In this document: one piece after another, positions 24,257 to 40,155 of the stretch
Position numbering within the stretch: the stretch's first letter is position 1
Layout: the number at the start of each line of letters is the position of its first letter
Assembly (NCBI GenBank): GCA_002408465.1
Contig: DHSM01000022.1
Location: forward strand, 81,555-145,554
DNA length: 64,000 nucleotides
Origin: Firmicutes bacterium UBA5286
Lineage (GTDB): Bacteria; Bacillota; Proteinivoracia; UBA4975
Direction of reading: 5' to 3'
Notes under the pieces: model-generated
The model's database searches: none
The model's input: only the letters and a program-made list of their open reading frames with translations
Told to the model about the DNA's origin: nothing
Translations under genes and position numbers: made by a program

Positions 24257-24270
24257 AATCTAGCCCCCCT

Positions 24271-25314
24271 TTATGCGTACAGCTTGCTGAACATCTCCCG
24301 CAGAACGCTGTTTTCCCGCAGTGTATTAATAGCAATCTCAGAATGGTCCTTGGTGTAACCGTTGCCGATGAGCATAGTCACGTCTTTGCCGATGCCCTCT
24401 GCGCCAAGAGCTGCGGCGGTAAAACTGGTGGCCATGCTGAAGAAATAGACCATGCCGCCGTCCTTGGTGGCCAAAATTGATGTCATTTCGGTGGCAGGAA
24501 TGTCAACACAGTTAATGGTCACGTCTGCCAAGGCGCCGTCAGTTGCCTCTTCAACCAATTTGAGAACAGCTACTGAATCCTTTGCATCACCGCGCAGGAT
24601 AACATCGGCCAGCCCGCTCTGCCGGACCCGCTCTGCCGCTCGATCCGAACGGCACAGGGCCATGACTTTGCCAGTGATGCCTGCCCGTTTCTTAGCCTCA
24701 TGGAGACAGAGGAGCCCGGATTTGCCGCCGCCGCCGATGATCAGCACTGTTTGGCCGGGGCCCACGATTTTGGCGGTTTGAGCAGGGGCGCCTGCTACGT
24801 CCAGCACTGCCAGGGCCAGCTTATCCGGCATGTCCTTAGGCAATTTCGCGTAGATGCCGCTTTCAAAGAGCACCGCTTTGGCCCGCACATCCACCTGGCA
24901 GGTAGCCGGATGCACTGCAAGAATTTCCTGGATGTTTAAGGGAGTCAGGGACAAAGAGACCATGCTGGCGACGCGGTCGCCCACTGCTAAATCTCGCTTG
25001 CCCTGCAAGGACTTACCGATTTCAGCCACCGACCCGATTAACATGCCGCCGGAACCGGTGACAGGATTATGCTGCTTCCCCCGCTTGGCAACAGTTTCCA
25101 AGATAATTTCGCCGATTTTCTCCGGGTCGCCTTTTGCCTGTTCCGAAATCTGCCTGAAGCTGGCTGCATCCACATTCAAAGTTTCAACATCGATGAGGAG
25201 TTCGTTGTCCCAAATCTCCATAGAGTTATCCAACTTCCATGCAGGTTGGGGCAAAGATCCCATTGGTTCAATAGTTCTGTGCGTTCCGTAACGATTTCCA
25301 CCTGTTTTTGTCAT
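24271..25314 (-). CDS. kdd: L-erythro-3,5-diaminohexanoate dehydrogenase (Kdd)
   Basis: 347 aa. Rossmann GGGGKSG motif, about Kdd size. First gene after the sigma-54 promoter in the lysine cluster. Assignment is by context plus family-like sequence. Confidence 0.7.
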   Translation of the reverse strand: MTKTGGNRYGTHRTIEPMGSLPQPAWKLDNSMEIWDNELLIDVETLNVDAASFRQISEQAKGDPEKIGEIILETVAKRGKQHNPVTGSGGMLIGSVAEIGKSLQGKRDLAVGDRVASMVSLSLTPLNIQEILAVHPATCQVDVRAKAVLFESGIYAKLPKDMPDKLALAVLDVAGAPAQTAKIVGPGQTVLIIGGGGKSGLLCLHEAKKRAGITGKVMALCRSDRAAERVRQSGLADVILRGDAKDSVAVLKLVEEATDGALADVTINCVDIPATEMTSILATKDGGMVYFFSMATSFTAAALGAEGIGKDVTMLIGNGYTKDHSEIAINTLRENSVLREMFSKLYA

Positions 25315-25325
25315 GAATGTCCCTC

Positions 25326-26711
25326 CTATTTCTTTACTTGCTCTATACTAATGCAAATTTCATGCCACTTGTGCTTTCGCAGCTTCCGCTGCAGAGTTTG
25401 TCTGGGGATGCCTAGTAAACTTGCGGCTTTGCTGATGTTATTTTCAGTAGTTTTCATTGTCCGGAAAATCATGTCCCTTTCCAGCCTATCCAGTTCCGGG
25501 CGCAATTTTTGTAAACCCCTAGGTTGGTGAAGATGCTCTGGCAAGTCTACAGTCTCAATCAGGCCCTCACTGCGGAAATTTAAGCAACTTTCAATGCAGT
25601 TGGACAGTTCCCGGATATTCCCTGGCCAGTGCCAGGCAGCAAGCATTCTTGCCGCCTCTGGAGCCACCCCCTCAACCCTGGTAGCGAGACTGGCGTTAAA
25701 CCGAGAAAGAAAATGTCTGCACAAAATGGGGATATCGATCTTTCGCTCCCGCAGAGGAGGCAACACCAAGACAACTACATTAAGCCGGTAATACAAATCC
25801 GGGCGCAGAGCCTCTTTGGGATTGGCAGCCATGGCGGCAATAATCCTGACATCCACTTTTCGTGTTCTGACATCCCCGAGCCGGCGCAACTCACCTGTCT
25901 CCAGCACCCGCAGCAGCTTGGCCTGGAGCTGATGGGGCATGGCATTGAGTTCGTCAAGAAACAAGGTTCCGCCGTTAGCCAGTTCAAACAGACCAGGCCT
26001 GTCCTGGGCGCCGGTAAAACTTCCCTTGACGCTGCCAAACAAAATGGCATCCAACAAGCCTTCCGGCAGAGCTGCACAGTTCTGGGCAATAAAAGGCCGG
26101 GCCCGGCGCAAACTTTCATTATGAATAGACTGAACCAGCAATTCTTTGCCTGTCCCAGTTTCTCCTACTACCATCACCGGCGAATCATTATGGGCGGCCA
26201 AGGCTCCCCGGGCCAGCACCTCCCGCAAAGCAGAGCTCTCGCCAATAATGTCGCTGAAGTGGTAAATTGCGCCTTGTTCCGCCCTGGCAGCAGGATCTTC
26301 GCTGTGCAGCCTACGGCGCAAGTCAATGACTTGTTCCGCCAGCTTCCGAATCCCTGATATATCCCGGGCCACCTCTACCGCCCCCAAGAGATTGCCCTCC
26401 TGCCCAAAAATGGGCAATGTGGTGTTGACAGTAGAAATTTCCACACCCTTGACATTGGTATAGACCTGTTGCTGATCGACAATGGGCTTGCCGGTGCGGG
26501 CCACCTTGAGCAAGGTGCTGGTTCCCCTGTCCAGGGAAGGGAAAATTTCCAGGACATGTTTGCCCAGCACCTCAGAGGGCTCCAATCCATCCATGATTGC
26601 CGCTGCAGCGTTATAGTATTTAGTTATACCGTTGGTGTCTACCATGTGTATGCCTTCGTTGCTGTGGCTAAGCACCACCTCAAGCAATGCATGTTCCAGT
26701 TGCATATTCAC
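25326..26711 (-). CDS. Sigma-54-dependent transcriptional activator (PAS sensor, AAA+ sigma-54 interaction domain, Fis-type HTH)
   Basis: 461 aa. N-terminal PAS. GETGTGKELLVQSIH Walker A, GAFTGA-like loop (GSFTGA), ELANGGTLFLDE, and a C-terminal HTH (AASLLGIPRQTLQRKL). Confidence 0.9.
   Translation of the reverse strand: MNMQLEHALLEVVLSHSNEGIHMVDTNGITKYYNAAAAIMDGLEPSEVLGKHVLEIFPSLDRGTSTLLKVARTGKPIVDQQQVYTNVKGVEISTVNTTLPIFGQEGNLLGAVEVARDISGIRKLAEQVIDLRRRLHSEDPAARAEQGAIYHFSDIIGESSALREVLARGALAAHNDSPVMVVGETGTGKELLVQSIHNESLRRARPFIAQNCAALPEGLLDAILFGSVKGSFTGAQDRPGLFELANGGTLFLDELNAMPHQLQAKLLRVLETGELRRLGDVRTRKVDVRIIAAMAANPKEALRPDLYYRLNVVVLVLPPLRERKIDIPILCRHFLSRFNASLATRVEGVAPEAARMLAAWHWPGNIRELSNCIESCLNFRSEGLIETVDLPEHLHQPRGLQKLRPELDRLERDMIFRTMKTTENNISKAASLLGIPRQTLQRKLRKHKWHEICISIEQVKK
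25352..25367 (-). promoter_or_regulatory. Sigma-54 (-24/-12) promoter TGGCATgaaatTTGCA driving kdd-kamA-...-kamE, embedded in the last codons of the activator gene
   Basis: The minus-strand sequence TGGCATGAAATTTGCA matches the consensus TGGCAC-N5-TTGCW with exact GG/GC spacing. It lies about 38-53 bp upstream of the kdd ATG (RBS AGGAGGG) and overlaps the 3' end of the EBP gene. Confidence 0.6.
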
Positions 26712-26761: not shown

Positions 26762-26787
26762 CGGAAGAAAAGCAACCTTATGGTTGC
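26762..26787 (-). terminator. Intrinsic terminator of the pdaD-speE-speB operon (GCAACCauaaGGUUGC plus U-rich tail), overlapping the speB stop codon
   Basis: Perfect 6-bp palindrome gcaacc/ggttgc centred on the speB stop, followed on the minus strand by uuuucuucc. Confidence 0.45.
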
Positions 26788-27641
26788 CTGCCAAAGAGCA
26801 ATAGAGCCTCCCGCATAATCTTGGCCCCCAGGGCAGCGGAAATGTCAGTATGATCATGGGGGGCTAATTCCACCAAATCAAAGCCAACAACATTGCACTG
26901 CCCCAACAGCTGGAGGCCGGCCAGCAGCTCCCGGGGGCTGATGCCGCCGGCCTCGGGAGTGCCGGTTCCGGGAGCATAGGCTGGGTCCAGAGCATCCAGA
27001 TCCAGGGTGATATAGATCGGCCCAGTCAGCTCGTGGATTACCTGGGAGAGGGGCTGTAGAAATCTAAAAGGAAAAAGGCGTGTCCGCTGGCGGGAAAACT
27101 GGTGCTCTTCCCTGGTGGCAGAACGAATGGCAAACTGCCATATTTCCCCCAGGGGCAGCGTCCTAGCGGCAGCGCCAACCACCGTGGCATGGGAAAGGGT
27201 TTCTCCCAGCCACTCCTCCCGCAAATCAGCATGGGCGTCAATATGTACTAGAGTGAGCCCGGGAAAATACCGGGAAAAGACACGCAGGCAGGGGAGGGTA
27301 ACAAGATGATCCCCGCCCATGACAAAGGGGCGCTGTCCAGCCGCCAGCAGCTGACCCACCGCCTCTTGGATTATGTCCAGAGAGCGGGGAACATTGCCAA
27401 TAGGCAACAACAAGTCGCCAGCATCATAAAAGTCTAAGTCCTCAAGACTTTTTTCCAGCTGCAGGCTATAATCCTCCAGATTGTATGACATTCGCCGCAC
27501 AGCTTCCGGCCCGAATCTTGACCCAGGCCGAAAACTGGCGGTAAAATCCATGGGAGCGCCTAAGATTACATTTGCTGCCTGGGGACTGTCGCCGGCGCAG
27601 AAAAATTTCTGTCCTCTAAAACTGTCTTTGCCCCATTCCAT
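26778..27641 (-). CDS. speB: Agmatinase (arginase family)
   Basis: 287 aa. Arginase-family Mn ligands (GGDHLVT, DAHADL, DLDALDP). Confidence 0.85.
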   Translation of the reverse strand: MEWGKDSFRGQKFFCAGDSPQAANVILGAPMDFTASFRPGSRFGPEAVRRMSYNLEDYSLQLEKSLEDLDFYDAGDLLLPIGNVPRSLDIIQEAVGQLLAAGQRPFVMGGDHLVTLPCLRVFSRYFPGLTLVHIDAHADLREEWLGETLSHATVVGAAARTLPLGEIWQFAIRSATREEHQFSRQRTRLFPFRFLQPLSQVIHELTGPIYITLDLDALDPAYAPGTGTPEAGGISPRELLAGLQLLGQCNVVGFDLVELAPHDHTDISAALGAKIMREALLLFGRQP

Positions 27642-28474
27642 TATGGTCTGCTCAAAAGCTCTCGGACAAACTGGGGCAAGACAAAACAGCTGCGGTGCAG
27701 TTCAGGGGTGTAGTACTTACTGATAAAACCCGGATGCGGCTGGCGCTGATTGGTCAAGGGGTCATATTGTTTGGAGGCCAGGGTAAAGCTCCACAAACCG
27801 CTGGGATAAGTGGGAATACTGGCCAAATAGGTGTGAACCTTGGGGAATACTGCCTGCATGCCCTTATAGGCCCCCGCCAGAATCTCCTGATTGTAAAAAG
27901 GAGATTCAGTCTGAGCAACCATTATGCCGTCCGGTCTCAAAGCGGCGTATACAGCAGCGTAAAAATCTCTGGAGAAGAGGGCAACGGCAGGTCCCACCGG
28001 TTCGGTAGAATCCACTAGCACTATGTCAAATTCCCCTTTATGTTCCCTGAGATAAGCAAAGCCGTCTCCGATGTGGATTTCGACTTTGGGGTTTCCCAGG
28101 GCGCCGGCGATTTCCGGCAAAAATTTCCGGGATTGGGCGATTACTTCGCCGTCAATCTCGGCAAGAATTGCTTTTTCCACCTGGGGATGTTGCAACACTT
28201 CCCGAATGGCTCCGCCATCGCCGCCGCCAATTACAGCAACTTTCCTGGGACAAGGATGGGTGAAAAGGGCCGGGTGGCTAATCATTTCATGATAAACAAA
28301 CTCATCGGCAATGGTGGTCATAACCATGCCGTCCAGGACCAGCATTGGGCCAAAGGCTTCGGTGTCGATGATGGCCAAGTGCTGATAGGGGGTCTGGGCC
28401 GTTGTCAGAGTTTCTCTGACTTTACAGGATAGTCTGAGACTGGGAGTCTGTTCTTCGGTATACCAAAGTTCCAT
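27641..28474 (-). CDS. speE: Spermidine synthase
   Basis: 277 aa. LWYTE start, VLDG, IGGGDGG and DSTEP motifs of SpeE. Confidence 0.9.
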   Translation of the reverse strand: MELWYTEEQTPSLRLSCKVRETLTTAQTPYQHLAIIDTEAFGPMLVLDGMVMTTIADEFVYHEMISHPALFTHPCPRKVAVIGGGDGGAIREVLQHPQVEKAILAEIDGEVIAQSRKFLPEIAGALGNPKVEIHIGDGFAYLREHKGEFDIVLVDSTEPVGPAVALFSRDFYAAVYAALRPDGIMVAQTESPFYNQEILAGAYKGMQAVFPKVHTYLASIPTYPSGLWSFTLASKQYDPLTNQRQPHPGFISKYYTPELHRSCFVLPQFVRELLSRP

Positions 28475-28486
28475 TCTTGAGTCCTC

Positions 28487-28945
28487 CTAGTACCACAGGG
28501 CTACAGCGGCAAAGGCGCAGCCTATTCTTTCCACCACATGTTCGGTGGAAGCCAGTTTAACGTCCTTGAGGGCAAGGTCTCTGACGGCAAAAGCATTTTT
28601 CAGCATCTGGCGAATTTTCTCTTCCGCCTCTTCCCTGGTCCCCTTGGCGGCATATTCCATAATCACGCCAAAAGAATTTTCGCTAAAGCCAATGCCGACA
28701 CAGGCGGCGATTTTTTCCCCTTTTTTCTCGCTGATTACATACCCATAAGCAGTGGGCACAAGGGATCCCGGGGGAAGGACCAAATCCGGAACATAAATCG
28801 ATTCTGGGGGCAAAATGCTGCTGATTCTCAGCAAATTGACATTGCCTATTCCTGACGCCAAAAGAGCGTTGTCAAAGGAGTTCAGCAGAGTCTCGCCTTC
28901 GGCGCTGCCGGCAACTATCTTAAACTTTTTCGGTGTTGGTAGCAT
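28487..28945 (-). CDS. pdaD: Pyruvoyl-dependent arginine decarboxylase (PdaD)
   Basis: 152 aa. The conserved self-cleavage Ser-Ser site sits in LLRISSILPP. Upstream of speE-speB (arginine to agmatine to putrescine to spermidine). Confidence 0.7.
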   Translation of the reverse strand: MLPTPKKFKIVAGSAEGETLLNSFDNALLASGIGNVNLLRISSILPPESIYVPDLVLPPGSLVPTAYGYVISEKKGEKIAACVGIGFSENSFGVIMEYAAKGTREEAEEKIRQMLKNAFAVRDLALKDVKLASTEHVVERIGCAFAAVALWY

Positions 28946-29106: not shown

Positions 29107-31287
29107 ATGGGAGGTGTGGCATTTTTGCGCCCGCGAAAAATCAAAAGACTGTTAACTCTATTCGTCTTGATCCCCTTCATTTTCCTAATTGCCGGAGCCG
29201 TTTATTTTGTTTATACCTACTACAGCATCGACCTGGCCAGGCAGCTGGAGGAACCTTCCATTATCCTGGACAGGGATGGCAGGCAAGTGAGCAGGTATTC
29301 TTCAGAAATCCGCCAGGTGGTCAGCCTGGATGAAATCTCCCCTTTTCTGGTGGATGCCACATTGGCCATAGAGGACGCTAGGTTTTACCAACATTTTGGC
29401 CTGGATCCACGGGGCCTGGCCAGGGCTCTTTGGCATAATTTGCGTAAAGGGCGCGTTGTCGAGGGGGGGAGTACAATTACACAGCAGCTGGCAGAAAATG
29501 AGTATTTTCTCAGCGTCAGCGGTCCTGCCCGCAGCTTGGGGAAAAAAATCAAGGAGGCCGTCTATGCCATTAAATTAGAGCGCACCTATACTAAGAATGA
29601 AATTCTTGAGCGCTACCTAAACAGAATTTATTTTGGCCATGGGCGCTTTGGCGTAGAGGCCGCCGCCCAATACTATTTCGGCAAATCCGCCCGGGACGTG
29701 ACTCTTTCCGAGGCGGCGATGCTGGCAGGCATTCCCAACGCTCCTGCAATATATTCACTGCGGGACCATCCCGACAATGCCCACTCCCGCAGAAACCTGG
29801 TGCTGGCCCGTATGGAAGAGCTGGGTTATATTTCCGCCGACCAGCGACAGGAGGCTGAAGCGCAAGTGCTGGTTGCATCCCCGCCCCAGGAAAAGGCAGC
29901 CAGCGCCAGCCATTTTCGCCTGCGGGTAGAAAAGGAACTAAGGAAAGTTTTTTCGGATTTGTATCCCACAATGAGCGATAAAGAAATTACTAATCTCATC
30001 TATAACCAGGGGTTAACTATTCATACCACCCTGTCCCTGTCTGCCCAGGCGGCAGCAGAGCAGGTGATGACTGAAAGAGGTCAGGCCCTGCGGCAGCAAA
30101 ATTCCAACATTCAAGGCGCTTTTGTTGCCATTGACCCCGCCAGCGGCGGCATTATCGCCCTGGTTGAGAGCCTTGAGCTTACAGGCACATATCCCCGCGC
30201 TGATGCCAAGTACAATTTAGGCTCATCTTTCAAAGGAGTTTTGTATACCGCCGCCCTGGAAAACGGCTATACTGCCGCCAGCACTTTGCTTTGTGCCGAA
30301 ACAGCCTTTCCCAATCCCGGCGGCAAACCGGATCCTTATGTGCCCAGTGATTATGGCGACAGATATCATAACCGGGCCCTGCGCATTCGAGAAGCGCTGG
30401 AGGTCTCCTGCAATGTGGCAGCAGTGCGCATTGGCGTTGAAATGGGACTGGACAAATATCTTGCCCTGGCGGCAAGGCTCAACCCCCGCCTGGCACAGAA
30501 CAATATCGGCAACCCGGCGCATTTGCAGCTGCCGTTGGGGCCCATGGCTTCACCTATGAATCTGACACTTGTCTATGCCCCCTTCGCCAACGGAGGCTAT
30601 TCAGTGGAACCCTATGCCGTAACCGAAGTGCGGGACAGAGACGGGGCCGTCATCTACCAGGCCTGGCCCAAGAGGCAGCCAGTATTGGATCCCCAGCTGG
30701 CCTATATTGTCACCCATATGCTTAAGGGCGTTCAGGGCATTAGCCAGATCCCCTATGCAGCGGGGAAAACGGGAACCAGCGACAACCGAAATACCGTTTT
30801 TGTTGGTTTTACCACCGACATTGTGGCCACGGCGTTCTTCGGCTTTGACACTCCCGCTGAAGCTAGCTTTGTGGGCAGTGCCGCCGGAGTGGCCGCCCCG
30901 GCCTGGCGGGAGTTTGCTGCCCTCTACTATGGAGAGTCACCGCCTCATGATTTTGTCCGTCCGCCAGGAATTGAAGAAGCAGTAGTATGTTCAGTAACAG
31001 GGCAGCTGGCAACCTATCTATGCCCCGATTCCTATACAGAACTTTTTATGCCAGACACAGCTCCCAGGGAATACTGTCAGGAACATGCCGGTGAGACCAT
31101 CGAAATCTGTCAGTCCACCGGACTGCCCGCCAACCCGTTCTGTCCCCAAGAGCTGCGCATATCCGTGCAAAGAGAAGCCTGGATGCGCAATCTCCAGTGC
31201 TGGCTACATGGCCCTCCCCTTGAGCCGGCAGATGAGCAGGAGCCGACCCCGGAAGAGGAAGAGGAAGGAGAGGAAGAGACAGACTAG
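29107..31287 (+). CDS. Class A penicillin-binding protein (PBP1A: glycosyltransferase plus transpeptidase) with acidic C-terminal tail
   Basis: 726 aa. N-terminal TM, GT51 motifs (EDARFYQHFGLD, GGSTITQQL, RKIKEAV), transpeptidase SxxK/SxN/KTG motifs. C-terminal EEEEEGEEETD. An alternative TTG start with a GGAGG RBS lies 15 nt downstream. Confidence 0.9.
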   Translation: MGGVAFLRPRKIKRLLTLFVLIPFIFLIAGAVYFVYTYYSIDLARQLEEPSIILDRDGRQVSRYSSEIRQVVSLDEISPFLVDATLAIEDARFYQHFGLDPRGLARALWHNLRKGRVVEGGSTITQQLAENEYFLSVSGPARSLGKKIKEAVYAIKLERTYTKNEILERYLNRIYFGHGRFGVEAAAQYYFGKSARDVTLSEAAMLAGIPNAPAIYSLRDHPDNAHSRRNLVLARMEELGYISADQRQEAEAQVLVASPPQEKAASASHFRLRVEKELRKVFSDLYPTMSDKEITNLIYNQGLTIHTTLSLSAQAAAEQVMTERGQALRQQNSNIQGAFVAIDPASGGIIALVESLELTGTYPRADAKYNLGSSFKGVLYTAALENGYTAASTLLCAETAFPNPGGKPDPYVPSDYGDRYHNRALRIREALEVSCNVAAVRIGVEMGLDKYLALAARLNPRLAQNNIGNPAHLQLPLGPMASPMNLTLVYAPFANGGYSVEPYAVTEVRDRDGAVIYQAWPKRQPVLDPQLAYIVTHMLKGVQGISQIPYAAGKTGTSDNRNTVFVGFTTDIVATAFFGFDTPAEASFVGSAAGVAAPAWREFAALYYGESPPHDFVRPPGIEEAVVCSVTGQLATYLCPDSYTELFMPDTAPREYCQEHAGETIEICQSTGLPANPFCPQELRISVQREAWMRNLQCWLHGPPLEPADEQEPTPEEEEEGEEETD

Positions 31288-33785
31288 TCCTCCCTCTGAG
31301 GAGAGGTAGATTGCAAAAATTCCCTTTGCCAAGCCAGGACTTCTCTGGCCGGACCGCTGCGTATGGGACAAGGGGGCAATGATTCCAAGAACCAGCGCCC
31401 GTATCCCCTGGTTGCTACTCGCTTGTCCAGCACCAAGACAACGCCCTTATCCTGCTTGTTCCGAATGAGGCGGCCAAAGCCCTGCTTGAAACGCAAAACT
31501 GCCTGAGGAATTTGGAAAGAATAAAATGGGTTTTTCCCCTGACTTCGCATTTCTTCCATTCTCGCCTGAAATACAGGCTCGTCAGGCACATTAAAGGGCA
31601 AGCGGGTCAAGATTAGATTGCTCAGGCTTTCCCCGGGCACATCCACCCCTTCCCAAAAGGACGCAGTGGCCATCAAGACTGAATTAGTATCCGCCTGAAA
31701 TTTTTCCAACAGTCTGTGCCGGGGCATATCTCCCTGGCAAAGCAGGGTAATCCCCTGGGCGGTGAGATCCTCTCCCAGGGCGGCAGCCGTTGCATTTAGC
31801 AGGTAAAAGGACGTAAAGAGCACCAGACCCCTGCCCCGGGAGGCCAGCAGCGACTCCCCGATGGCGGGGATTATTTTAGCCTGAAACCCGTGTTCCGCCG
31901 GATCAGGCAGGTCGGTTGCTATGCCCAGCAGCACCCGCTGCTGGTAATTGAAAGGGGATTCATACTGCAATTCCTTGACCTTGAAGGTTCTATCAAGTCC
32001 CAGCCTTTCCCGGATATAATCGTAACTCTTCTTCACCGTCAGAGTTGCGGAGGTGAAAATTACTGAAGGGAATTTCTCCCACAGATTCTCCTTCAAAATA
32101 TTGCTTACCGCGAGGGGTGCATAATTAAAGACTGCTCTGGGTCCCTGGCGGGTTGTTCCCAGTTCTGCCCAGCGCACCAAAGAACCATCTTCCCCCACAA
32201 GCACTTCCTGCAGGTCAGCTTCTAATCCCCCCAGCCTGGCCCGAATCCCATCTATTTCAATGGCCTGGGGCAACACAACCTCAAAGCCCTGGGGACCCAG
32301 GAAATCGAGGCGGGTGCGAAATGCCTCCAATAATTTTCCCAACCTTGCCGTCTCCAAAAACAAGGTCTCGGCCTTTGTTACCAGCTGCTGCCAGCCAGGG
32401 TGGTGAGCATATTCTCCAGTCAAACGCAATTTCAGGTCTTTTTCTCCCTGCTGGCTTAGAAAATTGACTGCAGCAGCGAAGAAACCGTTTATCTCTTCGC
32501 CTAAGTGGATACATTCCGGCACCAGCTGCTGCCGTATAGTCTCCATAAGTCCCCGGACCAGTTCGGCGTCAAGTCCTGCTGCAGCCGCCAATTTGTTTTC
32601 TAAGACCACCAGCAGTCCCTTGGACTTATTGGCCCGGACTGCATACAAGCGGGCCAGCAGCCGGGAGAAGCTCAGCCTGGTCACTCTCCCGCCCAGCCAG
32701 TCTGTTGCCGCCCGTTCAACATTATGAGCTTCGTCCAAGACTACACAGTGGTATTCCGGCAACACCCCCGTATCCGCTCCTTTGCTGCGCAGGGCAATGT
32801 CCGCAAACAGCAAGCTGTGATTGGCTATGAGCACTTGGGCATCCAGGGCCTCCCGCCTGGCGCTGTGGAAAAAGCACTCCCGAAAAAACTGACAGTTGAC
32901 CCGCAGACAGGCATCCGGTTCCGAGCAAACCAGGTCCCATAAGTCTCCGGGCCAAAAACCCAAATCGGATTTGGTTCCGTCCCGGGTGGTTTTCTCCCAG
33001 GTCATCATCGCCTGGAGGTTAGACAAATCTTTGTCCTCAATTAAATCCTCCCCCCGCTGAATGAGCTCCCGAAACTTTCGCTTGCATAGATAGTTTGCCC
33101 TGCCCTTGACAAGGACGGCTTTAAACCCAAAGGGCAACCCTCGCTGCAGGAGAGGGATATCTTTATAGAGCAACTGCTCCTGTAAATTTATGGTGTTGGT
33201 GGAGACAACCACCCGCCGGTTGTTCTCCCTGGCCCAGATGAGCACCGGCACCAGGTAGGCCAGACTCTTGCCGATGCCCGTGCCCGCTTCCGCCAAGGCA
33301 TGAGCACCCTCATTGAGGGCCTGGGCAAGATTGACAGCCATCTCCAGCTGCTGAGGCCTGCTCTCATAAGCGGGCATAATCCCGGCAACATATCCGCCGG
33401 GGCCCAAGGCAGCATTAACCAGTTTGAGGGAAACACTTGCCTGCGGTTTGCTTTGCACCGGCTCTACCAGGATATAGGCCTCGCTGACACTGTTGTCGAC
33501 AATGGCGAAGCCAATGCCTTCCCGAGCCAGCCGAGAAGCTGCTGTAATATCCCCCCCGGAAGGCGTCAGGTCTCCAGAGGGATGATTGTGAATAACCATC
33601 AGGCAGAGACCGGGCTTAGCCTGGACCACGGTAGGAACGCTGTCCTGGTTTCCCCGGGACATGACCTGGATATCTGTCATTACATTCTCCCTAAGGGTGG
33701 CGCGAAAAAATACTTCGTTATTATTGGCAGCTGCTATCTCCTGGCGCATCAGCCTGGCTGCCGCCGGGGAAAACCACTTATGCAT
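31284..33785 (-). CDS. dinG: DinG/Rad3-family Fe-S DNA helicase fused to an N-terminal RadC-like JAB/MPN domain
   Basis: 833 aa, one continuous frame. N-terminal HNHPSGDLTPSGGD is the RadC/JAB HxHPSG...PS..D signature. It is followed by Walker A GTGIGKSLAYL, four Fe-S cysteines (CKRK, CSEPDAC, NCQFFREC), the DEAH box VVLDEAHNV and C-terminal helicase motifs. Confidence 0.8.
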   Translation of the reverse strand: MHKWFSPAAARLMRQEIAAANNNEVFFRATLRENVMTDIQVMSRGNQDSVPTVVQAKPGLCLMVIHNHPSGDLTPSGGDITAASRLAREGIGFAIVDNSVSEAYILVEPVQSKPQASVSLKLVNAALGPGGYVAGIMPAYESRPQQLEMAVNLAQALNEGAHALAEAGTGIGKSLAYLVPVLIWARENNRRVVVSTNTINLQEQLLYKDIPLLQRGLPFGFKAVLVKGRANYLCKRKFRELIQRGEDLIEDKDLSNLQAMMTWEKTTRDGTKSDLGFWPGDLWDLVCSEPDACLRVNCQFFRECFFHSARREALDAQVLIANHSLLFADIALRSKGADTGVLPEYHCVVLDEAHNVERAATDWLGGRVTRLSFSRLLARLYAVRANKSKGLLVVLENKLAAAAGLDAELVRGLMETIRQQLVPECIHLGEEINGFFAAAVNFLSQQGEKDLKLRLTGEYAHHPGWQQLVTKAETLFLETARLGKLLEAFRTRLDFLGPQGFEVVLPQAIEIDGIRARLGGLEADLQEVLVGEDGSLVRWAELGTTRQGPRAVFNYAPLAVSNILKENLWEKFPSVIFTSATLTVKKSYDYIRERLGLDRTFKVKELQYESPFNYQQRVLLGIATDLPDPAEHGFQAKIIPAIGESLLASRGRGLVLFTSFYLLNATAAALGEDLTAQGITLLCQGDMPRHRLLEKFQADTNSVLMATASFWEGVDVPGESLSNLILTRLPFNVPDEPVFQARMEEMRSQGKNPFYSFQIPQAVLRFKQGFGRLIRNKQDKGVVLVLDKRVATRGYGRWFLESLPPCPIRSGPAREVLAWQREFLQSTSPQRED

Positions 33786-33855
33786 GGCTATTCACCTCCG
33801 CCTGTTATTATAGCATTTTGCCGCCAGGACATACTATCCTTAAGGAGGTAAGAGA

Positions 33856-34455
33856 TTGGCAAAACCCAAGGGCAAACCCAAGGCCAGGGAAATTCGCTCT
33901 CAGCACGCGCAATTGAAGAGCCATCCCCATGGCAATGAAAAAGGTGTCAAGTGGCCCATGGCTGTCAAGGACGGCTCCAGGCAAGACTACGGCTCCAAGA
34001 TGGATACTGGGCTAAAGGGAACTGACAAGGAACTTTTGGCTGTACAGAGACAGCTTGACTCTGACGAAAATTTATCGGCATATGGACTCAAGGCCGGTTC
34101 CGCAAATAATAAAATCCAGATTACCGGCATAGTGGATACTCTGGCTGACAAAGAAAAACTCAAGCCCCTTTTAAGAGATCTGGGAATTGTTGAGTTTGCC
34201 GACGGAGTCAGCATCAGCACCGATGGCTCCGTCCTCGACCAGGATGTCTCCAGGGAGGTTATGGAAGAAATTGGGGCTGAACCACTGCTGGCAGACAATG
34301 CCATCAGCGTAGAATGTGTCGCGGGGACGGTGTACTTGACCGGCGAAGTGAGGAGTCCCCGCCAGGAAGAGGCAGCTCTTGCCGCTGCCGGCCGGGGCCG
34401 GGGTGTTGTCCAGGTCGTCAGCCAGCTGCGCTTTTTGCCGGAAGTAAGGGAATAA
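33856..34455 (+). CDS. BON-domain protein (two BON repeats)
   Basis: 199 aa. Two repeats of the BON pattern (I.I...G.V.L.G.V....K). Low-complexity basic N-terminus. Confidence 0.55.
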   Translation: MAKPKGKPKAREIRSQHAQLKSHPHGNEKGVKWPMAVKDGSRQDYGSKMDTGLKGTDKELLAVQRQLDSDENLSAYGLKAGSANNKIQITGIVDTLADKEKLKPLLRDLGIVEFADGVSISTDGSVLDQDVSREVMEEIGAEPLLADNAISVECVAGTVYLTGEVRSPRQEEAALAAAGRGRGVVQVVSQLRFLPEVRE

Positions 34456-34518: not shown

Positions 34519-35244
34519 TTATTTTAAAGCAAGTTCGATCAGTTCCTCATCCAGCCAGTCTCCCTGTACATCCCGGACCAGCATTTTATGTTTATAGACA
34601 AATCTTGACGCCCAGCGTCCTGAAGGCAACTGGGGAAACCAAAGCTGCACTGTGGCCCGGGTGCCGGGAAACAGTTCAACTCCCGCTTCTTTGTACTTGG
34701 GGGGATGCTGCCAGGCGCAGACCGGGTGGCATTGATAAAAATCCCCCATTTGGTCTACAAGCACCCCTCTGCCATTGCGGCAGTCCATCTGCTGGGAGAA
34801 AGAAGCCCGGTTGCGCACATGCAGAATGAGTATTGAAGCCCGCAGGGCAAACAAATCTTTGCTTTCCAGTGAGAGCAACTGCTTGTAGCGGCAGCTGCGG
34901 CGATAATAACTGCATTCCCGGGGGCAAGTAAAGACTTGATTTGGCTGCAGTTCGGCGATCTGAATTTCCAGATGCCGACCCCGGGTGGGAGCGGGCACAA
35001 TTTGCGCCCCGTGGGCAACAGCGGTTTCTTGTTGGCTGCGGGCATGAAGGGTCCCGGGAAATGAGGGTTCCAGCGCCAATGCCAGGTTTCGGTATGCCTC
35101 TTCTATTTCTTTGGCCCTTTCCGGGTCGCCGCCAACATCAGGATGATGTCTTTTCATCAGGGCCCGGTAGGCAGCCCTGATTACTTCTGTAGGGGCGCCA
35201 GGACTGACGCCAAGCACTTTGTAATAATCCTTCATTTTTCCCAC
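34519..35244 (-). CDS. DnaJ (J-domain) protein with Cys-rich C-terminal domain of unknown function
   Basis: 241 aa. N-terminal J domain (DYYKVLGVSPGA...HPD tripeptide). The C-terminal part has several Cys/His. Confidence 0.7.
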   Translation of the reverse strand: MGKMKDYYKVLGVSPGAPTEVIRAAYRALMKRHHPDVGGDPERAKEIEEAYRNLALALEPSFPGTLHARSQQETAVAHGAQIVPAPTRGRHLEIQIAELQPNQVFTCPRECSYYRRSCRYKQLLSLESKDLFALRASILILHVRNRASFSQQMDCRNGRGVLVDQMGDFYQCHPVCAWQHPPKYKEAGVELFPGTRATVQLWFPQLPSGRWASRFVYKHKMLVRDVQGDWLDEELIELALK

Positions 35245-35293: not shown

Positions 35294-35767
35294 CTATTTA
35301 TGATAGGTCTCGCCGGCATTAATCTTGCATGCCCGATAGAGCTGCTCCAATAGAATCAGCCGCATAAGCTGATGAGGAAAGGTTAGAGCAGAAAAGCTCA
35401 AACGGTAGTCTGCCCTGGTGAGCACATCCTGGCAAAGGCCCATGGAGCCGCCTATACAAAAGGTCGCTTCACTGATTCCCCGCAGGGACAGGCTTTGAAA
35501 CAGGGCAGCCAAGCCCGGAGAATCCAAGCTTCTGCCTTTTATGTCCAGGGCAATAACATAAGACCTAGGTTTAATCCTGGTCAATATTTGCTCCCCTTCC
35601 CTTTGCAGGGCTTGTTGCTGCTGAACGCTGCCCCTGGGACAGGGCTGGTCCGGCACTTCCTCGATGCTTACTTTCCCTAGCCGGCCCAAGCGGCGACAAT
35701 ACTCTTGGATTCCCAGCTGCAGCCACTTTTCTTTTACCTTGCCCACAACTACCAGCCGAAATTGCAT
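35294..35767 (-). CDS. rlmH: 23S rRNA (pseudouridine1915-N3)-methyltransferase RlmH (SPOUT)
   Basis: 157 aa. MQFRLVVVGK start, SPOUT C-terminal knot motifs. Conserved position downstream of htrA-like near the origin. Confidence 0.9.
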   Translation of the reverse strand: MQFRLVVVGKVKEKWLQLGIQEYCRRLGRLGKVSIEEVPDQPCPRGSVQQQQALQREGEQILTRIKPRSYVIALDIKGRSLDSPGLAALFQSLSLRGISEATFCIGGSMGLCQDVLTRADYRLSFSALTFPHQLMRLILLEQLYRACKINAGETYHK

Positions 35768-35953
35768 TTATACCACCAGGTAGACGGGAGGTTGAGAGCA
35801 AAAATCGCAGAAATGAGGTGCTGTCCAGTCAGTAAAAGAAACTTTATCTAAAAGATACAGATCAGGCGGTGACTCATATATATCTACGAATTCGTCTATG
35901 GCCTGATCCAGATGCTCCGAGCAGACAACATACATTCTACTGCCTCCTGTCAC
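35768..35953 (-). CDS. Small CxxH/CxxC protein typically found beside htrA-like protease genes in Firmicutes
   Basis: 61 aa with CSEH and CDFC motifs. Translationally coupled (4-bp overlaps) to the HtrA-like gene and rlmH. Confidence 0.45.
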   Translation of the reverse strand: MTGGSRMYVVCSEHLDQAIDEFVDIYESPPDLYLLDKVSFTDWTAPHFCDFCSQPPVYLVV

Positions 35954-37122
35954 CGAACTTCTAATTCCGCTAAAATTACCTCAAAATTGAGTTTTTCCTT
36001 TCCTCGCACCACCGTCACCTGGACCTTGTCGCCGACGGATTTGTTGCTGATAATGCGGCGCAGGTCACGAAGGCCTTCTGTCTTGGTGCCATTAACTTCA
36101 ATTATGATATCCTCAGGCTTAATTCCCGCTTGCCTGGCGGGTCCGCCATAGGGGGTCTCAGTAACCAGCAAACCGTAATCACTGCCTAAATTATAGGCCT
36201 CGGCAATGGCCGGCGTAATTTCACCGATGGTCACTCCCAGCATGGGACGGATGACCCGGCCCTCTTTGATCAAGGATTCGCTGATGCTCTTAACCAAGTT
36301 GCTGGGAATGCTGAAACCAAGGCCCTCTGCGTCAGTTATCTTGACGCTGTTGATACCTACCACTTCACCCTTCATGTTGACCAGGGGACCGCCGCTGTTG
36401 CCGGGGTTGATGGCCGCGTCGGTCTGCAGGAGGCCAAAGACCCAGTCATACACGTCAAAGCTGCGATCGGTGGCGGAGATAATACCCAAGGTTACCGAAC
36501 GCTGCAGTTCAGGCCCGCCGGGGTTGCCAATGGCGATGACAAACTCGCCAACCGTAAGTTGTCCGGAATCCCCCAGCACAGCCCAGGGCATGTCTGCCAA
36601 GGGTTGTATTTTTAATACAGCCAAATCGGTGCCAGGGTCCTGGCCGACAATAGCAGCATCCACTTCCTGACCATTGCTCAAGGTCACTACCACGGAGACG
36701 GCATCTTCCACCACATGGTAATTGGTGACAATATAGCCGCCGGGGCTGATGATTACACCGCTGCCATATCCCGTGGGCGCCGCAGGCGTGATTCTTCCAA
36801 ACCAGTCCCGAGATTGAGAAATGCGAGTGACACCGACAACAGCGGGGAAGACCTTGCTTACCGCTGCAACAACCGCCGTCTGTTGATATTCCAAGTCTGG
36901 CATCTGGAGAGAATCCTGATTCTGATAATTCCAGGGCAAGACTTGGTCTGGATTAGGATTTTGGCTGATGTCAGCTGCAGGCAACAAATAGGGAAGCAGC
37001 GCGGGCAGACATAAAAGTACAATCAACCCGCCCAATAAAGCTGCAGCCACCAGTCCTAAAAAACGACGCCAACGAGAAGAACGGGGGGATTTTTCAATAT
37101 AGTATTCTTCCATTTGCACCAC
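35950..37122 (-). CDS. htrA: Trypsin-like serine protease with PDZ domain (HtrA/YyxA-like)
   Basis: 390 aa. N-terminal TM. Catalytic GNSGGPLVN. C-terminal PDZ. Confidence 0.85.
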   Translation of the reverse strand: MVQMEEYYIEKSPRSSRWRRFLGLVAAALLGGLIVLLCLPALLPYLLPAADISQNPNPDQVLPWNYQNQDSLQMPDLEYQQTAVVAAVSKVFPAVVGVTRISQSRDWFGRITPAAPTGYGSGVIISPGGYIVTNYHVVEDAVSVVVTLSNGQEVDAAIVGQDPGTDLAVLKIQPLADMPWAVLGDSGQLTVGEFVIAIGNPGGPELQRSVTLGIISATDRSFDVYDWVFGLLQTDAAINPGNSGGPLVNMKGEVVGINSVKITDAEGLGFSIPSNLVKSISESLIKEGRVIRPMLGVTIGEITPAIAEAYNLGSDYGLLVTETPYGGPARQAGIKPEDIIIEVNGTKTEGLRDLRRIISNKSVGDKVQVTVVRGKEKLNFEVILAELEVR

Positions 37123-37148
37123 CTCTGTTACGAATTGTAACAGATTTG

Positions 37149-37961
37149 CTATTTAACCTGCAACACCGGACCCGGCTTATGCCGGGGAAGGACTTTTAGG
37201 CTGTGATAAACTGGTTCCGAATCCATACCCTGGGCCGCAAGGAACTGAGCTACCGCAGCAATGGCGATTTCAGGGCTGTTGTTGACAGCGCTCAGGTGAC
37301 CTAAATGGGCCTGGGTAATCTTGCCCTTGGCGGCCAGCCATGCCAGCACACGGGCCGCCTGTAGATTGGAAAGATGCCCATTTTCGCTGGCCACCCTTTT
37401 TTTTAACGACCAGGGATACGGTCCCTGCTGCAGCATCTTAAGATCGTGATTTGCTTCAAGCACCATGGCATTGCATGCGGACAGTGTATTGACCATAGCT
37501 TCAGTGACACAGCCGGTATCCGTAAACACCGCCGCCCGGCATTTGCCTGTATCAAAGATATAGTTAACCGGTTCCAAGGCATCATGGCAGACTGGCAGCG
37601 CCCAGACTTCCAAGCCATTTAAGACAAAAGCCGTCCCCGGAGAAATTAGATGAATTTTATCTTCGGAGATGATGCCCAGTCTATCTCTGGCCGCCAGCCA
37701 GGTGCCTGCAGTCATGTACAGGGGAATTCCCAGCCTGCGGCTGAGAATGCCGGCGCCGGCAATATGGTCATTGTGTTCGTGGGTTACAAGTATGGCTGTG
37801 ATGCTGGCGGAATCAATCCCCGCTGCCGCCAGTCCGGCATAGGTCCGCTTGCCGCTGAGGCCGGCATCCAGGAGCAAGGCCCGGCCCTGATGCAAAATTA
37901 TGTATGCGTTTCCACTGCTGCCGCTGGCCAGCGAATGAACTTCCATTTTCCAAGCCTCCAC
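37149..37961 (-). CDS. walJ: MBL-fold metallo-hydrolase WalJ/YycJ
   Basis: 270 aa. THEHNDHIAG metallo-beta-lactamase motif. Conserved position in the wal locus. Confidence 0.75.
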   Translation of the reverse strand: MEAWKMEVHSLASGSSGNAYIILHQGRALLLDAGLSGKRTYAGLAAAGIDSASITAILVTHEHNDHIAGAGILSRRLGIPLYMTAGTWLAARDRLGIISEDKIHLISPGTAFVLNGLEVWALPVCHDALEPVNYIFDTGKCRAAVFTDTGCVTEAMVNTLSACNAMVLEANHDLKMLQQGPYPWSLKKRVASENGHLSNLQAARVLAWLAAKGKITQAHLGHLSAVNNSPEIAIAAVAQFLAAQGMDSEPVYHSLKVLPRHKPGPVLQVK

Positions 37962-37986
37962 ATAAAAACGGGGCAGCTGCCCCGCT

Positions 37987-39240
37987 TCAGATCAATTCAA
38001 TATCTGCGCCCAGGCCCTGGAGTTTGCCAATAAAGTCATGATACCCCCTGCGCAGGTGCTCAACTCCGCTGACCCGGGTTTCTCCCCGAGCGATAAGTCC
38101 GGCAATAATCAGGGCGGAACTAGCCCGTAAATCGAAGGGATGGACAGTAGCGCCCAGGATTTCGTCAACGCCTTCGATTACCGCAGCCCGGCCCTCAACT
38201 TTGATATTGGCTCCCATCCGCTTTAGTTCATCTACATAGCGAAATCTGGTTTCAAATATATTTTCGGTAATAATGCTTGTGCCTGTACACACTGCCAGGT
38301 AAGAGGCCAGGGGCTGCTGCAAGTCAGTGGGAAACCCCGGATAGGGCAAGGTCTTGATGTCAATGGCTTGGCCCCTGGCGGGACCCCGCACTCGAATCCA
38401 ATCATCACCTTCCTCTATCATTACACCGGATTCCCTCAATTTGGCTGTCACTGCTTCTAGATGGCGAGGAATGACATCTTTAACAATCACATCGCCGCCG
38501 GTGGCTGTGGCAGCTATCATAAATGTACCGGCCTCAACCCGGTCGGGTATAATGCTGTGCTCGGAACAACCCCGCTCCCTTGTGCCTGTGATGCGCAGGG
38601 TGCCCGTTCCCGCCCCCCGAACAACAACTCCAATTTTATTTAAAAAGTTTGCCACATCGATGATTTCTGGTTCCCGGGCTGCGTTTTCAATGGTGGTATT
38701 ACCCTCAACCCCTGCCGCTGCCAGCATTACATTGACGGTTGCCCCCACAGTGACCAAGTCAAAATATATGTCTCCGCTTTTTTTCTCTCCACCCTGCAAA
38801 TGCACCTTGCCGTCGCTGATAGTCCAAGAATAGCCCAGGGCATGAAATCCTTTAAGGTGCTGATCTATTGGCCGGGGACCGATTTTGCACCCGCCGGGCA
38901 AACCCGTCCTTGCTGAGCCAAATCTACCCAAGAGAGCGCCCATAAAATAGTAGGATGCTCGCAACTTCTCCGCAAGTCCCTCAGGAGGAGTGAGATTTTT
39001 TATCTGTGCTGTGTCAACGCTGATGGTGGAAGAATCCAACCACTGAACTTCTGCGCCTAATGCCGAAAGAATTTCGCACTGGGTGCGCACATCGGTAAGG
39101 GGGGGCACATTTTCAAGGACACAAGGCCCCTGGGCGAGAATGGTGGCAGGAATAATTGCCACGGCTGCGTTTTTTGCGCCGCTAATGCTGACAGTACCTT
39201 TAAGAGGAAGAGACCTGTTGATGCGTATAATATTTTCCAT
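37987..39240 (-). CDS. murA: UDP-N-acetylglucosamine 1-carboxyvinyltransferase (MurA paralog)
   Basis: 417 aa. GAKNAA N-terminus, the active-site Cys loop LPGGCKIGPRPID, two-domain EPSP-synthase fold motifs. Confidence 0.9.
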   Translation of the reverse strand: MENIIRINRSLPLKGTVSISGAKNAAVAIIPATILAQGPCVLENVPPLTDVRTQCEILSALGAEVQWLDSSTISVDTAQIKNLTPPEGLAEKLRASYYFMGALLGRFGSARTGLPGGCKIGPRPIDQHLKGFHALGYSWTISDGKVHLQGGEKKSGDIYFDLVTVGATVNVMLAAAGVEGNTTIENAAREPEIIDVANFLNKIGVVVRGAGTGTLRITGTRERGCSEHSIIPDRVEAGTFMIAATATGGDVIVKDVIPRHLEAVTAKLRESGVMIEEGDDWIRVRGPARGQAIDIKTLPYPGFPTDLQQPLASYLAVCTGTSIITENIFETRFRYVDELKRMGANIKVEGRAAVIEGVDEILGATVHPFDLRASSALIIAGLIARGETRVSGVEHLRRGYHDFIGKLQGLGADIELI

Positions 39241-39273
39241 GATTACCCCCAGCTGAAGATAGTGATATCTATC

Positions 39274-40155
39274 TTATTCAACGTCGAAGAGGGTTTTCCT
39301 GCCGGGAAACTGTCTTTCGCCTTCAAGTTCTCCGGTTTGAGCGTTGACATAGTACTTGCTGCCGCCTTCAGTCTCCACAACCCAAACCGGGCTGGCACGC
39401 CATTGATCTGCCAGCACCGGCATGCCATACCAGGAGATATATATGCCAGTAATTGTGGCCCCTGCTGGCATTTTTTCCGCCGCTACTGTCAAGGCTGCGG
39501 TGGCAGGAATGGATAACAAGCTTTCCCCCGCATACCCCATCACTTCAACCCAATAATAATCCAGTTCAATTATGCTGCCGCTCTGATCAACCACTACGAC
39601 AATGCTGGAGACTTCAAGTTCCTTACCATGCCAGCGTTGAATATACTCCACTGCCCATGTGCCGTCTGGGCTGGCCGCCGTCTTCCCGGCAATTGAATCC
39701 CTTGGTCTGCCCACAGTGTCTTCTAAGAATTGATCGGCCCTTTTGCGGGCTGCGGATATGGCAATGTCGCCGTTTTCGGGGGGGAGGGCGGAAAGATAGT
39801 GAATGCGGCCATCCACGTAAATGTCAACTTCACCAAGAGCGGAACGGTATTCCGACTTGGCTCCCGAAGCGACTCGCTCAAACTTCTCTCCTATGAGACT
39901 CGCCGCCACTTCCTCTTCGCGAAAAAGCACATTGCTTACGCCTAATAATTGCAGGCGCTTCATCCGCCTGGGCACCTTGGCTGTGACGGCAATGCCGCTG
40001 TACTCCAGTTCTTCAAGGGTTGCCTGGATTTGTTCCGGGCTGACATAGTTTGAGGAATCAAAAAAAACAGGCAGCAGCCACAACTGAAAGACAAAAGCCA
40101 AATTCAAGACTAAGAAGGCAATGATAAAAATGTTGATTGTCCGCTCCCAATCCAT
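39274..40155 (-). CDS. yycI: YycI-like regulator of the WalK kinase (N-terminal TM, periplasmic domain)
   Basis: 293 aa. Single N-terminal TM helix. Position and size match YycI. Confidence 0.55.
   Translation of the reverse strand: MDWERTINIFIIAFLVLNLAFVFQLWLLPVFFDSSNYVSPEQIQATLEELEYSGIAVTAKVPRRMKRLQLLGVSNVLFREEEVAASLIGEKFERVASGAKSEYRSALGEVDIYVDGRIHYLSALPPENGDIAISAARKRADQFLEDTVGRPRDSIAGKTAASPDGTWAVEYIQRWHGKELEVSSIVVVVDQSGSIIELDYYWVEVMGYAGESLLSIPATAALTVAAEKMPAGATITGIYISWYGMPVLADQWRASPVWVVETEGGSKYYVNAQTGELEGERQFPGRKTLFDVE

Follow-up and report, generated by a model that had tools for sequence, protein, structure and literature searches.

The window (the whole 64-kb stretch of DNA analysed) encodes a DinG/XPD-type helicase with a RadC-type JAB/MPN domain at its N-terminus. 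The protein almost certainly belongs to the RadC-like DinG subgroup and is unexceptional within a family that is already known and widespread; the architecture is not new. Fusions of RadC-JAB to DinG/Rad3 helicases were described by Iyer, Zhang, Rogozin and Aravind in 2011, who saw them as close relatives of the versions with a fused exonuclease and suggested nuclease activity for the JAB (PMC3239186). The fusion, the comparison with exonuclease-DinG and the nuclease idea reappeared in 2017 (PMC5512222). In 2025 Cheng gave the subgroup its name, "RadC-like DinG", and stated that no research on it exists (PMC11981726). The novelty implied by the original prediction therefore falls away, and as a discovery the window protein adds little, since the literature already contained its architecture, the link to exonuclease-DinG and the proposal of nuclease activity. 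Literature searches turned up no experiments on RadC-like DinG and none on the biochemistry of RadC.

The protein is encoded by a single open reading frame of 833 amino acids, as had been predicted (Table 1). A RadC-like JAB, an SF2 motor and an Arch domain lie in one polypeptide together with the CCCC motif of a predicted Fe-S domain. The reference protein of the subgroup, A0A0M4DKS9 of Desulfuromonas soudanensis (PMC11981726), aligns collinearly with residues 13-392 of the window protein at 46% identity (E 1e-108). Both follow the domain order JAB, linker, motor domain 1 (MD1), Fe-S, Arch, motor domain 2 (MD2), and both have the E / HxH / D catalytic constellation and the four-cysteine Fe-S module. 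Nothing essential separates the two, the window copy coming from an uncultured Bacillota lineage; few Bacillota were sampled by Cheng (PMC11981726).

Table 1. Coordinates of the RadC-like DinG gene, its domains and motifs, and its candidate expression signals in the window
Feature	Position	Strand	Basis or remarks
RadC-like DinG gene, complete	31284..33785	(-)	833 aa; open reading frame list
Candidate expression signals	33793..33815	(-)	Likely extended -10 TGcTATAAT (33815-33807) and Shine-Dalgarno GGAGGTG (33799-33793); direct reading of the sequence
RadC-type JAB/MPN domain, residues 1-108	33462..33785	(-)	Pfam RadC, profile and fold matches
E24 codon, JAMM general-base glutamate	33714..33716	(-)	Invariant in alignments A1 and A2; 114/121 homologues
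JAMM zinc-site motif H66-N-H68-PSGDLTP-S76-GG-D79	33549..33590	(-)	Regular expression and six-frame scan
Linker, residues 109-135	33381..33461	(-)	Poorly conserved; one short helix
Walker A / motif I, AGTGIGKS, residues 167-174	33264..33287	(-)	G172 and K173 in 121/121 homologues
Fe-S module (predicted), C234/C293/C298/C304	32874..33086	(-)	In 121/112/120/120 of 121 homologues
Walker B / DEAH box, residues 351-354	32724..32735	(-)	D, E and H in 121/121 homologues
Arch domain, about residues 371-560	32106..32675	(-)	Secondary structure of full-length model; long helices 407-446 and 463-530
Motor domain 2 / Helicase_C_2, about residues 561-810	31356..32105	(-)	PF13307, 155 bits, residues 648-805

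Helicase body and related helicases

The motor is an intact DinG/XPD type, with Walker A, DEAH, motif VI, an Arch domain and a four-cysteine Fe-S module. This agrees with the prediction of a complete DinG helicase following the JAB. Pfam called Helicase_C_2 (155 bits) and DEAD (residues 155-206) in the protein, and DEAD_2 scored below its cutoff. Motif VI, QGFGRLIR, occupies residues 768-775, of which Q768, G769, G771, R772 and R775 are invariant. Unlike the four Fe-S cysteines, C287 is not conserved among the 121 homologues. The AF2 model of the whole protein (pLDDT 89, pTM 0.85) has E. coli DinG (6FWR) as its top PDB match and is also structurally similar to S. aureus DinG.

The exonuclease-bearing DinG of Bacillus and Staphylococcus (ExoDinG; PRK08074, TIGR01407) is a close counterpart, its helicase body aligning end to end with that of the window protein and its accessory hydrolase domain taking the same N-terminal position. 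Residues 134-824 match positions 250-929 of the 931 positions of PRK08074, which models the Bacillus-type exonuclease-DinG in NCBIfam, so the JAB and linker stand where model positions of about 1-249 would be. These first positions, about 249 in number, presumably hold the exonuclease module, and the prediction that a JAB stands in for the exonuclease domain is thus borne out by position. The two N-terminal domains are of unrelated fold: that of ExoDinG is an RNase H-like, DnaQ-type 3'-5' exonuclease, whereas that of the window protein is JAB/deaminase-like. The scores also remain below the ExoDinG equivalog cutoffs, at 522.6 bits versus 789 for PRK08074 and 360.9 versus 547.7 for TIGR01407. 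ExoDinG is represented in the PDB by entries 8ZEF and 9II8.

YoaA, a DinG paralogue of E. coli, binds the clamp-loader subunit HolC. The YoaA model (NF053712) gave the best NCBIfam score for the helicase body, 571.3 bits, which is nevertheless under its cutoff of 680, and YoaA differs in having no N-terminal domain. According to Cheng, the body of RadC-like DinG is most similar to YoaA, and the organisms with RadC-like DinG are without HolC (PMC11981726).

N-terminal JAB/MPN domain

The domain search, on which the reading of the N-terminus depended, called Pfam RadC (PF04002) at 25.4 bits in the whole protein and 31.3 bits in residues 1-135 alone, above the gathering cutoff of 22.1. All of the N-domains of the family that were compared match the same model (35/35). 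A profile of the N-domain finds the RadC structure 2QLC (E 1.5e-7), and its AF2 model (pLDDT 88.5) retrieved AfJAMM 1OI0, RadC 2QLC, PfJAMM1 (5LD9) and Rpn11 in Foldseek, each with a probability of 1.00. The RadC/JAB signature is present, at residues 66-79 rather than at the predicted residues of about 75-90, and its HNHPSG and SGGD parts are separated by four residues and not by five. Together with E24 it completes the JAMM constellation E-x(n)-H-x-H-x7-S-x2-D (E24, H66-x-H68-x7-S76-x2-D79) on a JAB/MPN fold. Residues 45-60, between the G-N motif and HNH, form a low-confidence loop in both the N-domain and the full-length models, and the linker helix, residues 120-127, is likewise seen in both. 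A further JAMM-type gene was not apparent in the window; the lone other match of the regular expression, at 15377-15418, has no RadC signature.

Canonical RadC is a protein composed of HhH and JAB domains. The window protein shares with it (PF04002, 2QLC) the HNHPSG-x4-PS-x2-D motif, an upstream glutamate and a G-N/T motif after the second strand, which reads ARGN in the window protein. The stretch from the G-N motif to the HNH region is shorter in the window protein, as read by eye from the alignment, and the window-type N-domain differs further in being found only fused to a helicase. The full-length RadC models (TIGR00608, PRK00024) match residues 61-89 alone, with 22.9 bits versus a cutoff of 180 and 18.6 versus 133.85. 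The fold and the E...HxHx7SxxD zinc site are common to the JAMM/MPN+ isopeptidases as well (AfJAMM 1OI0, PfJAMM1 5LD9, Rpn11, CSN5). The window JAB differs from these in being minimal (108 residues), in sitting on a DNA motor and in having no genes for ubiquitin-like proteins (Ubl) or their conjugation nearby.

Possible function of the JAB domain

The best explanation is that of a typical RadC-like DinG whose JAB carries out helicase-coupled, zinc-dependent hydrolysis, and this is probably correct. By analogy with DinG, YoaA and XPD, the motor would load onto single-stranded DNA and translocate in the 5' to 3' direction, with the Fe-S domain and motor domain 1 forming the leading edge and the N-terminal JAB lying at the front of the enzyme. 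At this position, the JAB would meet whatever the helicase displaces or encounters, such as the 3' terminus of a strand that is blocked or has been displaced. Hydrolysis there could trim or clear a terminus or an adduct, as the fused exonuclease would in ExoDinG. This proposed trimming mechanism follows the argument from non-homologous domain displacement made by Iyer et al. in 2011 (PMC3239186). The alternative end-processing module suggested in the original prediction is likewise a hypothesis. The fusion places the action of the JAB at the front of a motor moving 5'-3' on single-stranded DNA, which makes the search for its substrate tractable. The RadC-like DinG family thereby offers an experimental handle on RadC, which is very widespread in bacteria.

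The bond cleaved may tentatively be placed in nucleic acid, the activity being nuclease-like. Cleavage of a peptide or amide bond, in a protein or adduct bound to DNA, is possible, if rather doubtful. In the latter case, the JAB might be a DNA-dependent metallopeptidase: the helicase would meet a crosslinked or tightly bound protein and unfold or present it, and the JAMM site would cut it. In animals, FANCJ and SPRTN, which serve in protein unfolding or presentation and in cleavage, are separate proteins. By analogy, such an enzyme could conceivably be a bacterial counterpart of the FANCJ and SPRTN pairing in a single polypeptide; like the metallopeptidase reading itself, this is on the unlikely side. 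Against peptide cleavage, RadC-type JABs are probably without a groove for a ubiquitin-like tail according to Iyer et al. (PMC5512222), and the other N-terminal fusions of DinG listed by Cheng are of nuclease type, namely Exo, pseudo-Exo and Endo (PMC11981726). No genes for Ubl, E1/E2 or protease adaptors were found in about 85 neighbourhoods of the family. Gene content of this kind would argue against a Ubl substrate. It is improbable that RadC-like DinG is a self-contained bacterial remover of DNA-protein crosslinks or protein roadblocks, with the JAB as a DNA-dependent metallopeptidase; if it were, canonical RadC would gain its long-missing biochemical function.

Conservation of the zinc site and its loss

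The JAB of the window protein is likely to be catalytically active, as judged from its sequence. Residue counts were taken from 121 family members and homologues in a full-length MAFFT alignment. In this set H66 is retained in 114, H68 in 118, S76 in 117 and D79 in 117. All five JAMM residues of the window protein are intact and, as the alignment indicates, under purifying selection. Among distant homologues, identity is 43% in the JAB, 21% in the linker and 26% in the Arch domain, the lowest value within the helicase; conservation of the JAB equals that of the Fe-S and MD2 domains.

The zinc ligands or the glutamate were lost in the sister-clade syntenic orthologues P0010, P0011, P0020 and P0024, and separately in P0026. 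Despite the loss, all five proteins retain a full-length N-domain and an intact helicase. Such retention, which is one modest addition to the published picture, would suit a JAB that is mainly non-catalytic, in the manner of the MPN-minus domains or the pseudo-exonuclease of pExoDinG. Such a domain would serve to stabilise the helicase or to bind either DNA or a partner, its intact JAMM residues being a mere relic. The inactive JAB versions noted in fusobacteria by Iyer et al. in 2011 (PMC3239186) fit this reading as well, and the pTM of 0.85 suggests that the JAB may be packed in a fixed manner on the motor in the model. The reading is nonetheless quite improbable for the window protein. The HxHx7SxxD pattern is kept in 113 of 120 homologues. 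Few positions are invariant across phyla, and the five catalytic ones belong to them. Relative to the helicase, the N-domain evolves about 1.5 times faster at the protein level where the zinc ligands are lost, the ratio being 1.0-1.2 where they are intact. Catalysis by the JAB therefore appears to be under selection where the site is intact, including in the window protein. The orthologues with lost ligands, which occupy the corresponding locus on the chromosomes of sister species, can serve as natural controls for a catalytic versus a structural role.

Integrity of the fusion and genomic context

Assembly artefact is ruled out as the source of the fusion, because at least 23 contigs of independent assemblies (JGI, ENA, Logan) encode the identical protein, and the JAB and helicase share one reading frame at 72 of the 73 genome loci that could be assessed. 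An exhaustive profile search yielded 240 cluster representatives (E<=1e-30); all fragments of sufficient length for a judgement run on into the helicase. Neither among these matches nor at the 73 loci was there a stand-alone form of the N-domain. Homologues with the N-terminal region as a separate gene, which would have spoken for a split gene, were thus absent from both sets.

The gene, chromosomal and monocistronic, has a housekeeping character and lies in an origin-proximal part of the genome of an uncultured Bacillota bacterium. The predicted flanks were confirmed, PBP1A being convergent and the BON-domain protein divergent, and the syntenic surroundings are of housekeeping type, as had also been proposed. 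Clustering of open reading frames of at least 100 amino acids over 85 loci revealed no conserved partner gene, no neighbour family occurring in more than 17 loci, and the recurrent neighbour families are lineage-specific housekeeping genes. Genomic context gives no support to a Ubl-deconjugase or a defence-system reading. That the fusion arose when a radC-like gene was joined to dinG by frameshift or misassembly, for which nothing speaks, or that the gene is part of a mobile or defence element (CasDinG-like, or akin to polyvalent proteins from conjugative elements), contexts in which CasDinG among the DinG relatives and some RadC domains do occur, is hardly credible given the independent contigs and fused loci, the stable walK-htrA-DinG-PBP1A-polyamine gene order in relatives down to 51% identity, flanks free of integrase and island features, a score of 114.4 bits versus a cutoff of 400 with the CasDinG/Csf4 model (TIGR03117), the lack of a type IV CRISPR context and the absence of cas genes from the window and related loci. 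Among named genomes the nearest is that of Firmicutes bacterium UBA5496, whose N-domain is 83% identical.

Expression signals

The Rfam scan of the window returned just five tRNAs, all of them away from the gene. A Cheo-type LexA box (GAAC-N4-GTTC, with at most one mismatch) was not found close to the promoter, and its counts over the window correspond to chance. SOS regulation was rejected on this basis, which is a weak negative given that LexA motifs vary among lineages. The start codon is an ATG located 7 nt after the Shine-Dalgarno sequence GGAGGTG. Instead of the likely extended -10 element of Table 1, a consensus promoter scanner picks a different site, a weak TTGCCA-18-GATAGT at 33862-33833.

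Identity of the JAB-helicase protein

DinG is encoded by a single unbroken 833-aa ORF in the ORF list. Reading of the sequence places its ATG 7 nt after the Shine-Dalgarno GGAGGTG, with an extended -10 element, TGcTATAAT, upstream of the start codon; a Cheo-type LexA box was not found for this gene. The DinG and PBP1A genes share the palindrome CTAG (31284-31287) at their ends, the TAG stops overlapping by 2 nt and the ORFs by 4 nt. At this junction there is no intergenic space, and a terminator-like hairpin was not found.

The N-terminal domain of this DinG is a genuine JAB. Pfam RadC (PF04002) matches the whole protein at 25.4 bits and residues 1-135 alone at 31.3 bits (gathering cutoff 22.1); it also matches each of 35 diverse family N-domains tested alone (35/35; best E 6.7e-11). 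With the N-domain profile, the crystal structure of RadC (2QLC) is matched at E 1.5e-7 and AfJAMM weakly. AlphaFold2 models residues 1-135 with confidence (pLDDT 88.5), and the top PDB matches of this model are AfJAMM 1OI0, RadC 2QLC, PfJAMM1, Rpn11 and CSN5, each with probability 1.00. The JAMM signature reads H66-N-H68-PSG-DLTP-S76-GG-D79, with E24 as the general-base glutamate. The original prediction recognized this RadC signature but placed it at about residues 75-90 instead of 66-79, and counted five residues between HNHPSG and SGGD where there are four.

As predicted, a complete DinG helicase follows, with Walker A (167-174), DEAH (351-354), motif VI (768-775) and four conserved cysteines (C234, C293, C298, C304). 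Pfam calls Helicase_C_2 (155 bits) and DEAD; DEAD_2 is under cutoff. The full-length model, likewise confident (pLDDT 89, pTM 0.85), has E. coli DinG 6FWR (E 5.5e-43) and S. aureus DinG as its first matches, followed by XPD and CasDinG. In both models, the loop 45-60 adjoining the active site is the sole weak stretch of the JAB.

Relation to other DinG types

The protein is 46% identical (E 1e-108) to the RadC-like DinG reference of Desulfuromonas soudanensis and collinear with it over residues 13-392. On the helicase body the highest NCBIfam score belongs to YoaA (571 bits, cutoff 680); PRK08074, the model of Bacillus-type exonuclease-DinG, gives 522.6 bits (cutoff 789), and scores against full-length RadC, Csf4/CasDinG and Rad3 models are far under each cutoff. 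Positions 250-929 of the 931 in PRK08074 align to residues 134-824. Because the alignment starts at position 250, the JAB and linker stand in place of the first ~249 positions, which we infer to hold the exonuclease module. By position, this supports the original description of the JAB as taking the place of an exonuclease.

Fusions of RadC-type JAB domains with DinG/RAD3-like helicases were described in several phyla, including firmicutes, by Iyer, Zhang, Rogozin and Aravind in 2011 (PMC3239186). These authors regarded the fusions as close kin of the 3'-5' exonuclease-fused versions, inferred a possible nuclease function of the JAB from non-homologous domain displacement, and mentioned inactive versions. 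The nuclease idea was repeated later (PMC5512222). The original prediction is confirmed and its structural interpretation was correct, but it was not new. The window protein is a typical RadC-like DinG of already published architecture. Literature searches found no experimental study on the RadC-like DinG subgroup or on RadC biochemistry.

Extent of the fusion

The JAB-helicase fusion is real and general. The identical protein occurs on at least 23 contigs of independent assemblies (JGI, ENA, Logan), which excludes an artefact. Nearly all of the best 120 homologues are 816-890 aa long, and HxHx7SxxD is kept in 113 of them. An exhaustive HMM search with the N-domain profile against 1.84 billion cluster representatives gave 240 matches at E<=1e-30. 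The best 150 of these included 146 new representatives, 77 of which are full-length fusions. All shorter matches long enough to judge extend as far as the Q-motif or Walker A of the helicase and so represent fragments or frameshifts in gene calling rather than stand-alone genes.

Scanning the GTDB species genomes revealed at least 525 relatives, distributed over Bacillota, Halanaerobiales, Desulfuromonadales/Geobacteraceae, Thermodesulfobacteriota, Nitrospirota, Nitrospinota, KSB1, Binatia, Dadabacteria and Spirochaetota. Among named genomes, that of the uncultured 'Firmicutes bacterium UBA5496' is closest. At 72 of 73 assessable loci a single ORF encodes both JAB and helicase, and the N-terminal region was not found as a separate gene in homologues. 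The sole locus with an early-stopping JAB ORF (L041, a Nitrospirota MAG, match 6001-6393) encodes 251 aa ending past Walker A, probably a frameshift or pseudogene in that MAG.

Selection on the JAB and its possible function

Among distant homologues, identity to the query is 43% in the JAB; the Fe-S domain (41%) and MD2 (50%) are comparable, and Arch (26%) and the linker (21%) are clearly lower. Neither curated alignment shows any variation at E24, H66, H68, S76 or D79. In the clade sister to that of the window (P0010, P0011, P0020, P0024), zinc ligands or the glutamate are replaced, as happened independently in P0026. The five catalytic positions in these proteins read ECHSD, GCHTE, ERHSD, RANSD and EYHRE; replacements include H66 to C, R or A, E24 to G or R, and D79 to E. 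In all five proteins the domain remains full-length and the helicase motifs are intact. P0010 and P0024 lie at the same syntenic locus and are therefore orthologues. The JAB/helicase divergence ratio is ~1.5 in the sister clade, compared with 1.0-1.2 where clades retain an intact site. In our reading, catalysis is under selection where the JAMM site is intact, as in the window, and can be lost; in addition, the JAB keeps some structural role, as may also hold for the pseudo-exonuclease of pExoDinG.

The window protein combines an intact 5'-3'-type Fe-S motor and an intact JAMM zinc site in an obligate fusion, with the JAB at the position of the ExoDinG exonuclease. XPD, DinG and YoaA travel along ssDNA in the 5' to 3' direction, led by MD1 and the Fe-S domain. 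By analogy, the window motor would move likewise; with these domains leading, an N-terminal domain on MD1 would therefore meet an exposed terminus or obstacle. Most likely, the JAB would perform a helicase-coupled, zinc-dependent hydrolytic step clearing the exposed terminus or an adduct. The bond cut may tentatively be placed in nucleic acid, as the published hypothesis holds. Cleavage of a peptide or amide bond in a DNA-bound protein is a slightly less probable alternative; it is favoured by the chemistry of every characterised JAMM enzyme known to us, and FANCJ-SPRTN provides a precedent for it (PMC10175854). A mainly structural role, such as the ligand-loss proteins could suggest, is improbable for the JAB of the window protein. 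The RadC-like DinG family would offer a good handle on the function of RadC.

Genomic setting

DinG sits in an origin-proximal housekeeping region, between PBP1A and the BON protein as predicted. The Bacillota-type synteny of the walR-rlmH and parB-mnmE blocks suggests that the window is near oriC.

Features around DinG and ligand-loss loci of relatives
Feature	Position	Strand	Remark
Lysine-fermentation-type cluster	18073-26705	-	Pfam matches on identical contig L001
Lysine 2,3-aminomutase-like radical SAM protein	about 23018-24085	-	same cluster, Pfam on L001
3,5-diaminohexanoate dehydrogenase-like KDD	24271-25314	-	same cluster, Pfam on L001
Sigma-54 PAS activator	25326-26705	-	same cluster, Pfam on L001
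Polyamine operon	26778-28945	-	
Agmatinase	26778-27641	-	polyamine operon
Spermidine synthase	27641-28474	-	polyamine operon
Pyruvoyl-dependent arginine decarboxylase	28487-28945	-	polyamine operon
PBP1A	29107-31287	+	convergent with DinG
DinG	31284-33785	-	
BON-domain gene	33856-34455	+	divergent from DinG
241-aa protein	34519-35244	-	N-terminal DnaJ (J) domain only; C-terminal part uncharacterised, several cysteines
walR, walK, yycH, yycI, murA-like, walJ, htrA, yyzF, rlmH	35294-43919	-	origin-proximal Bacillota synteny
Five tRNA genes, tight group	45629-46036	-	just downstream of rplI
rplI	46101-46544	-	part of DinG surroundings
parB, parA, noc-like, rsmG, mnmG, mnmE	57280-63721	-	origin-proximal Bacillota synteny
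L089 ligand-loss locus	7001-9526		syntenic with window
L090 ligand-loss locus	7001-9463		syntenic with window

Gene order around DinG is unchanged in relatives with DinG at just 51-67% identity. Clustering of neighbours at 85 loci found no family in more than 17 and no conserved partner; no ubiquitin-like system or defence island was seen in the neighbourhoods examined. The window and the related locus L008 have the BON-domain gene, whereas the sister-clade loci L089 and L090 lack it; it therefore has no functional tie to DinG. Beyond this lineage, RadC-like DinG has other neighbours: MutL is convergent on it at another locus (L007), and RtcB with archease lies upstream of it in a genome of Syntrophotaleaceae. 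Alkalicella again has PBP1A beside RadC-like DinG, with a transposase gene in between. The large ORFs after the radical SAM gene may encode the remaining lysine-fermentation enzymes. The J-domain protein adjoins rlmH in relatives and is missing from L089. Linkage of the polyamine operon to PBP1A and DinG is kept in relatives.
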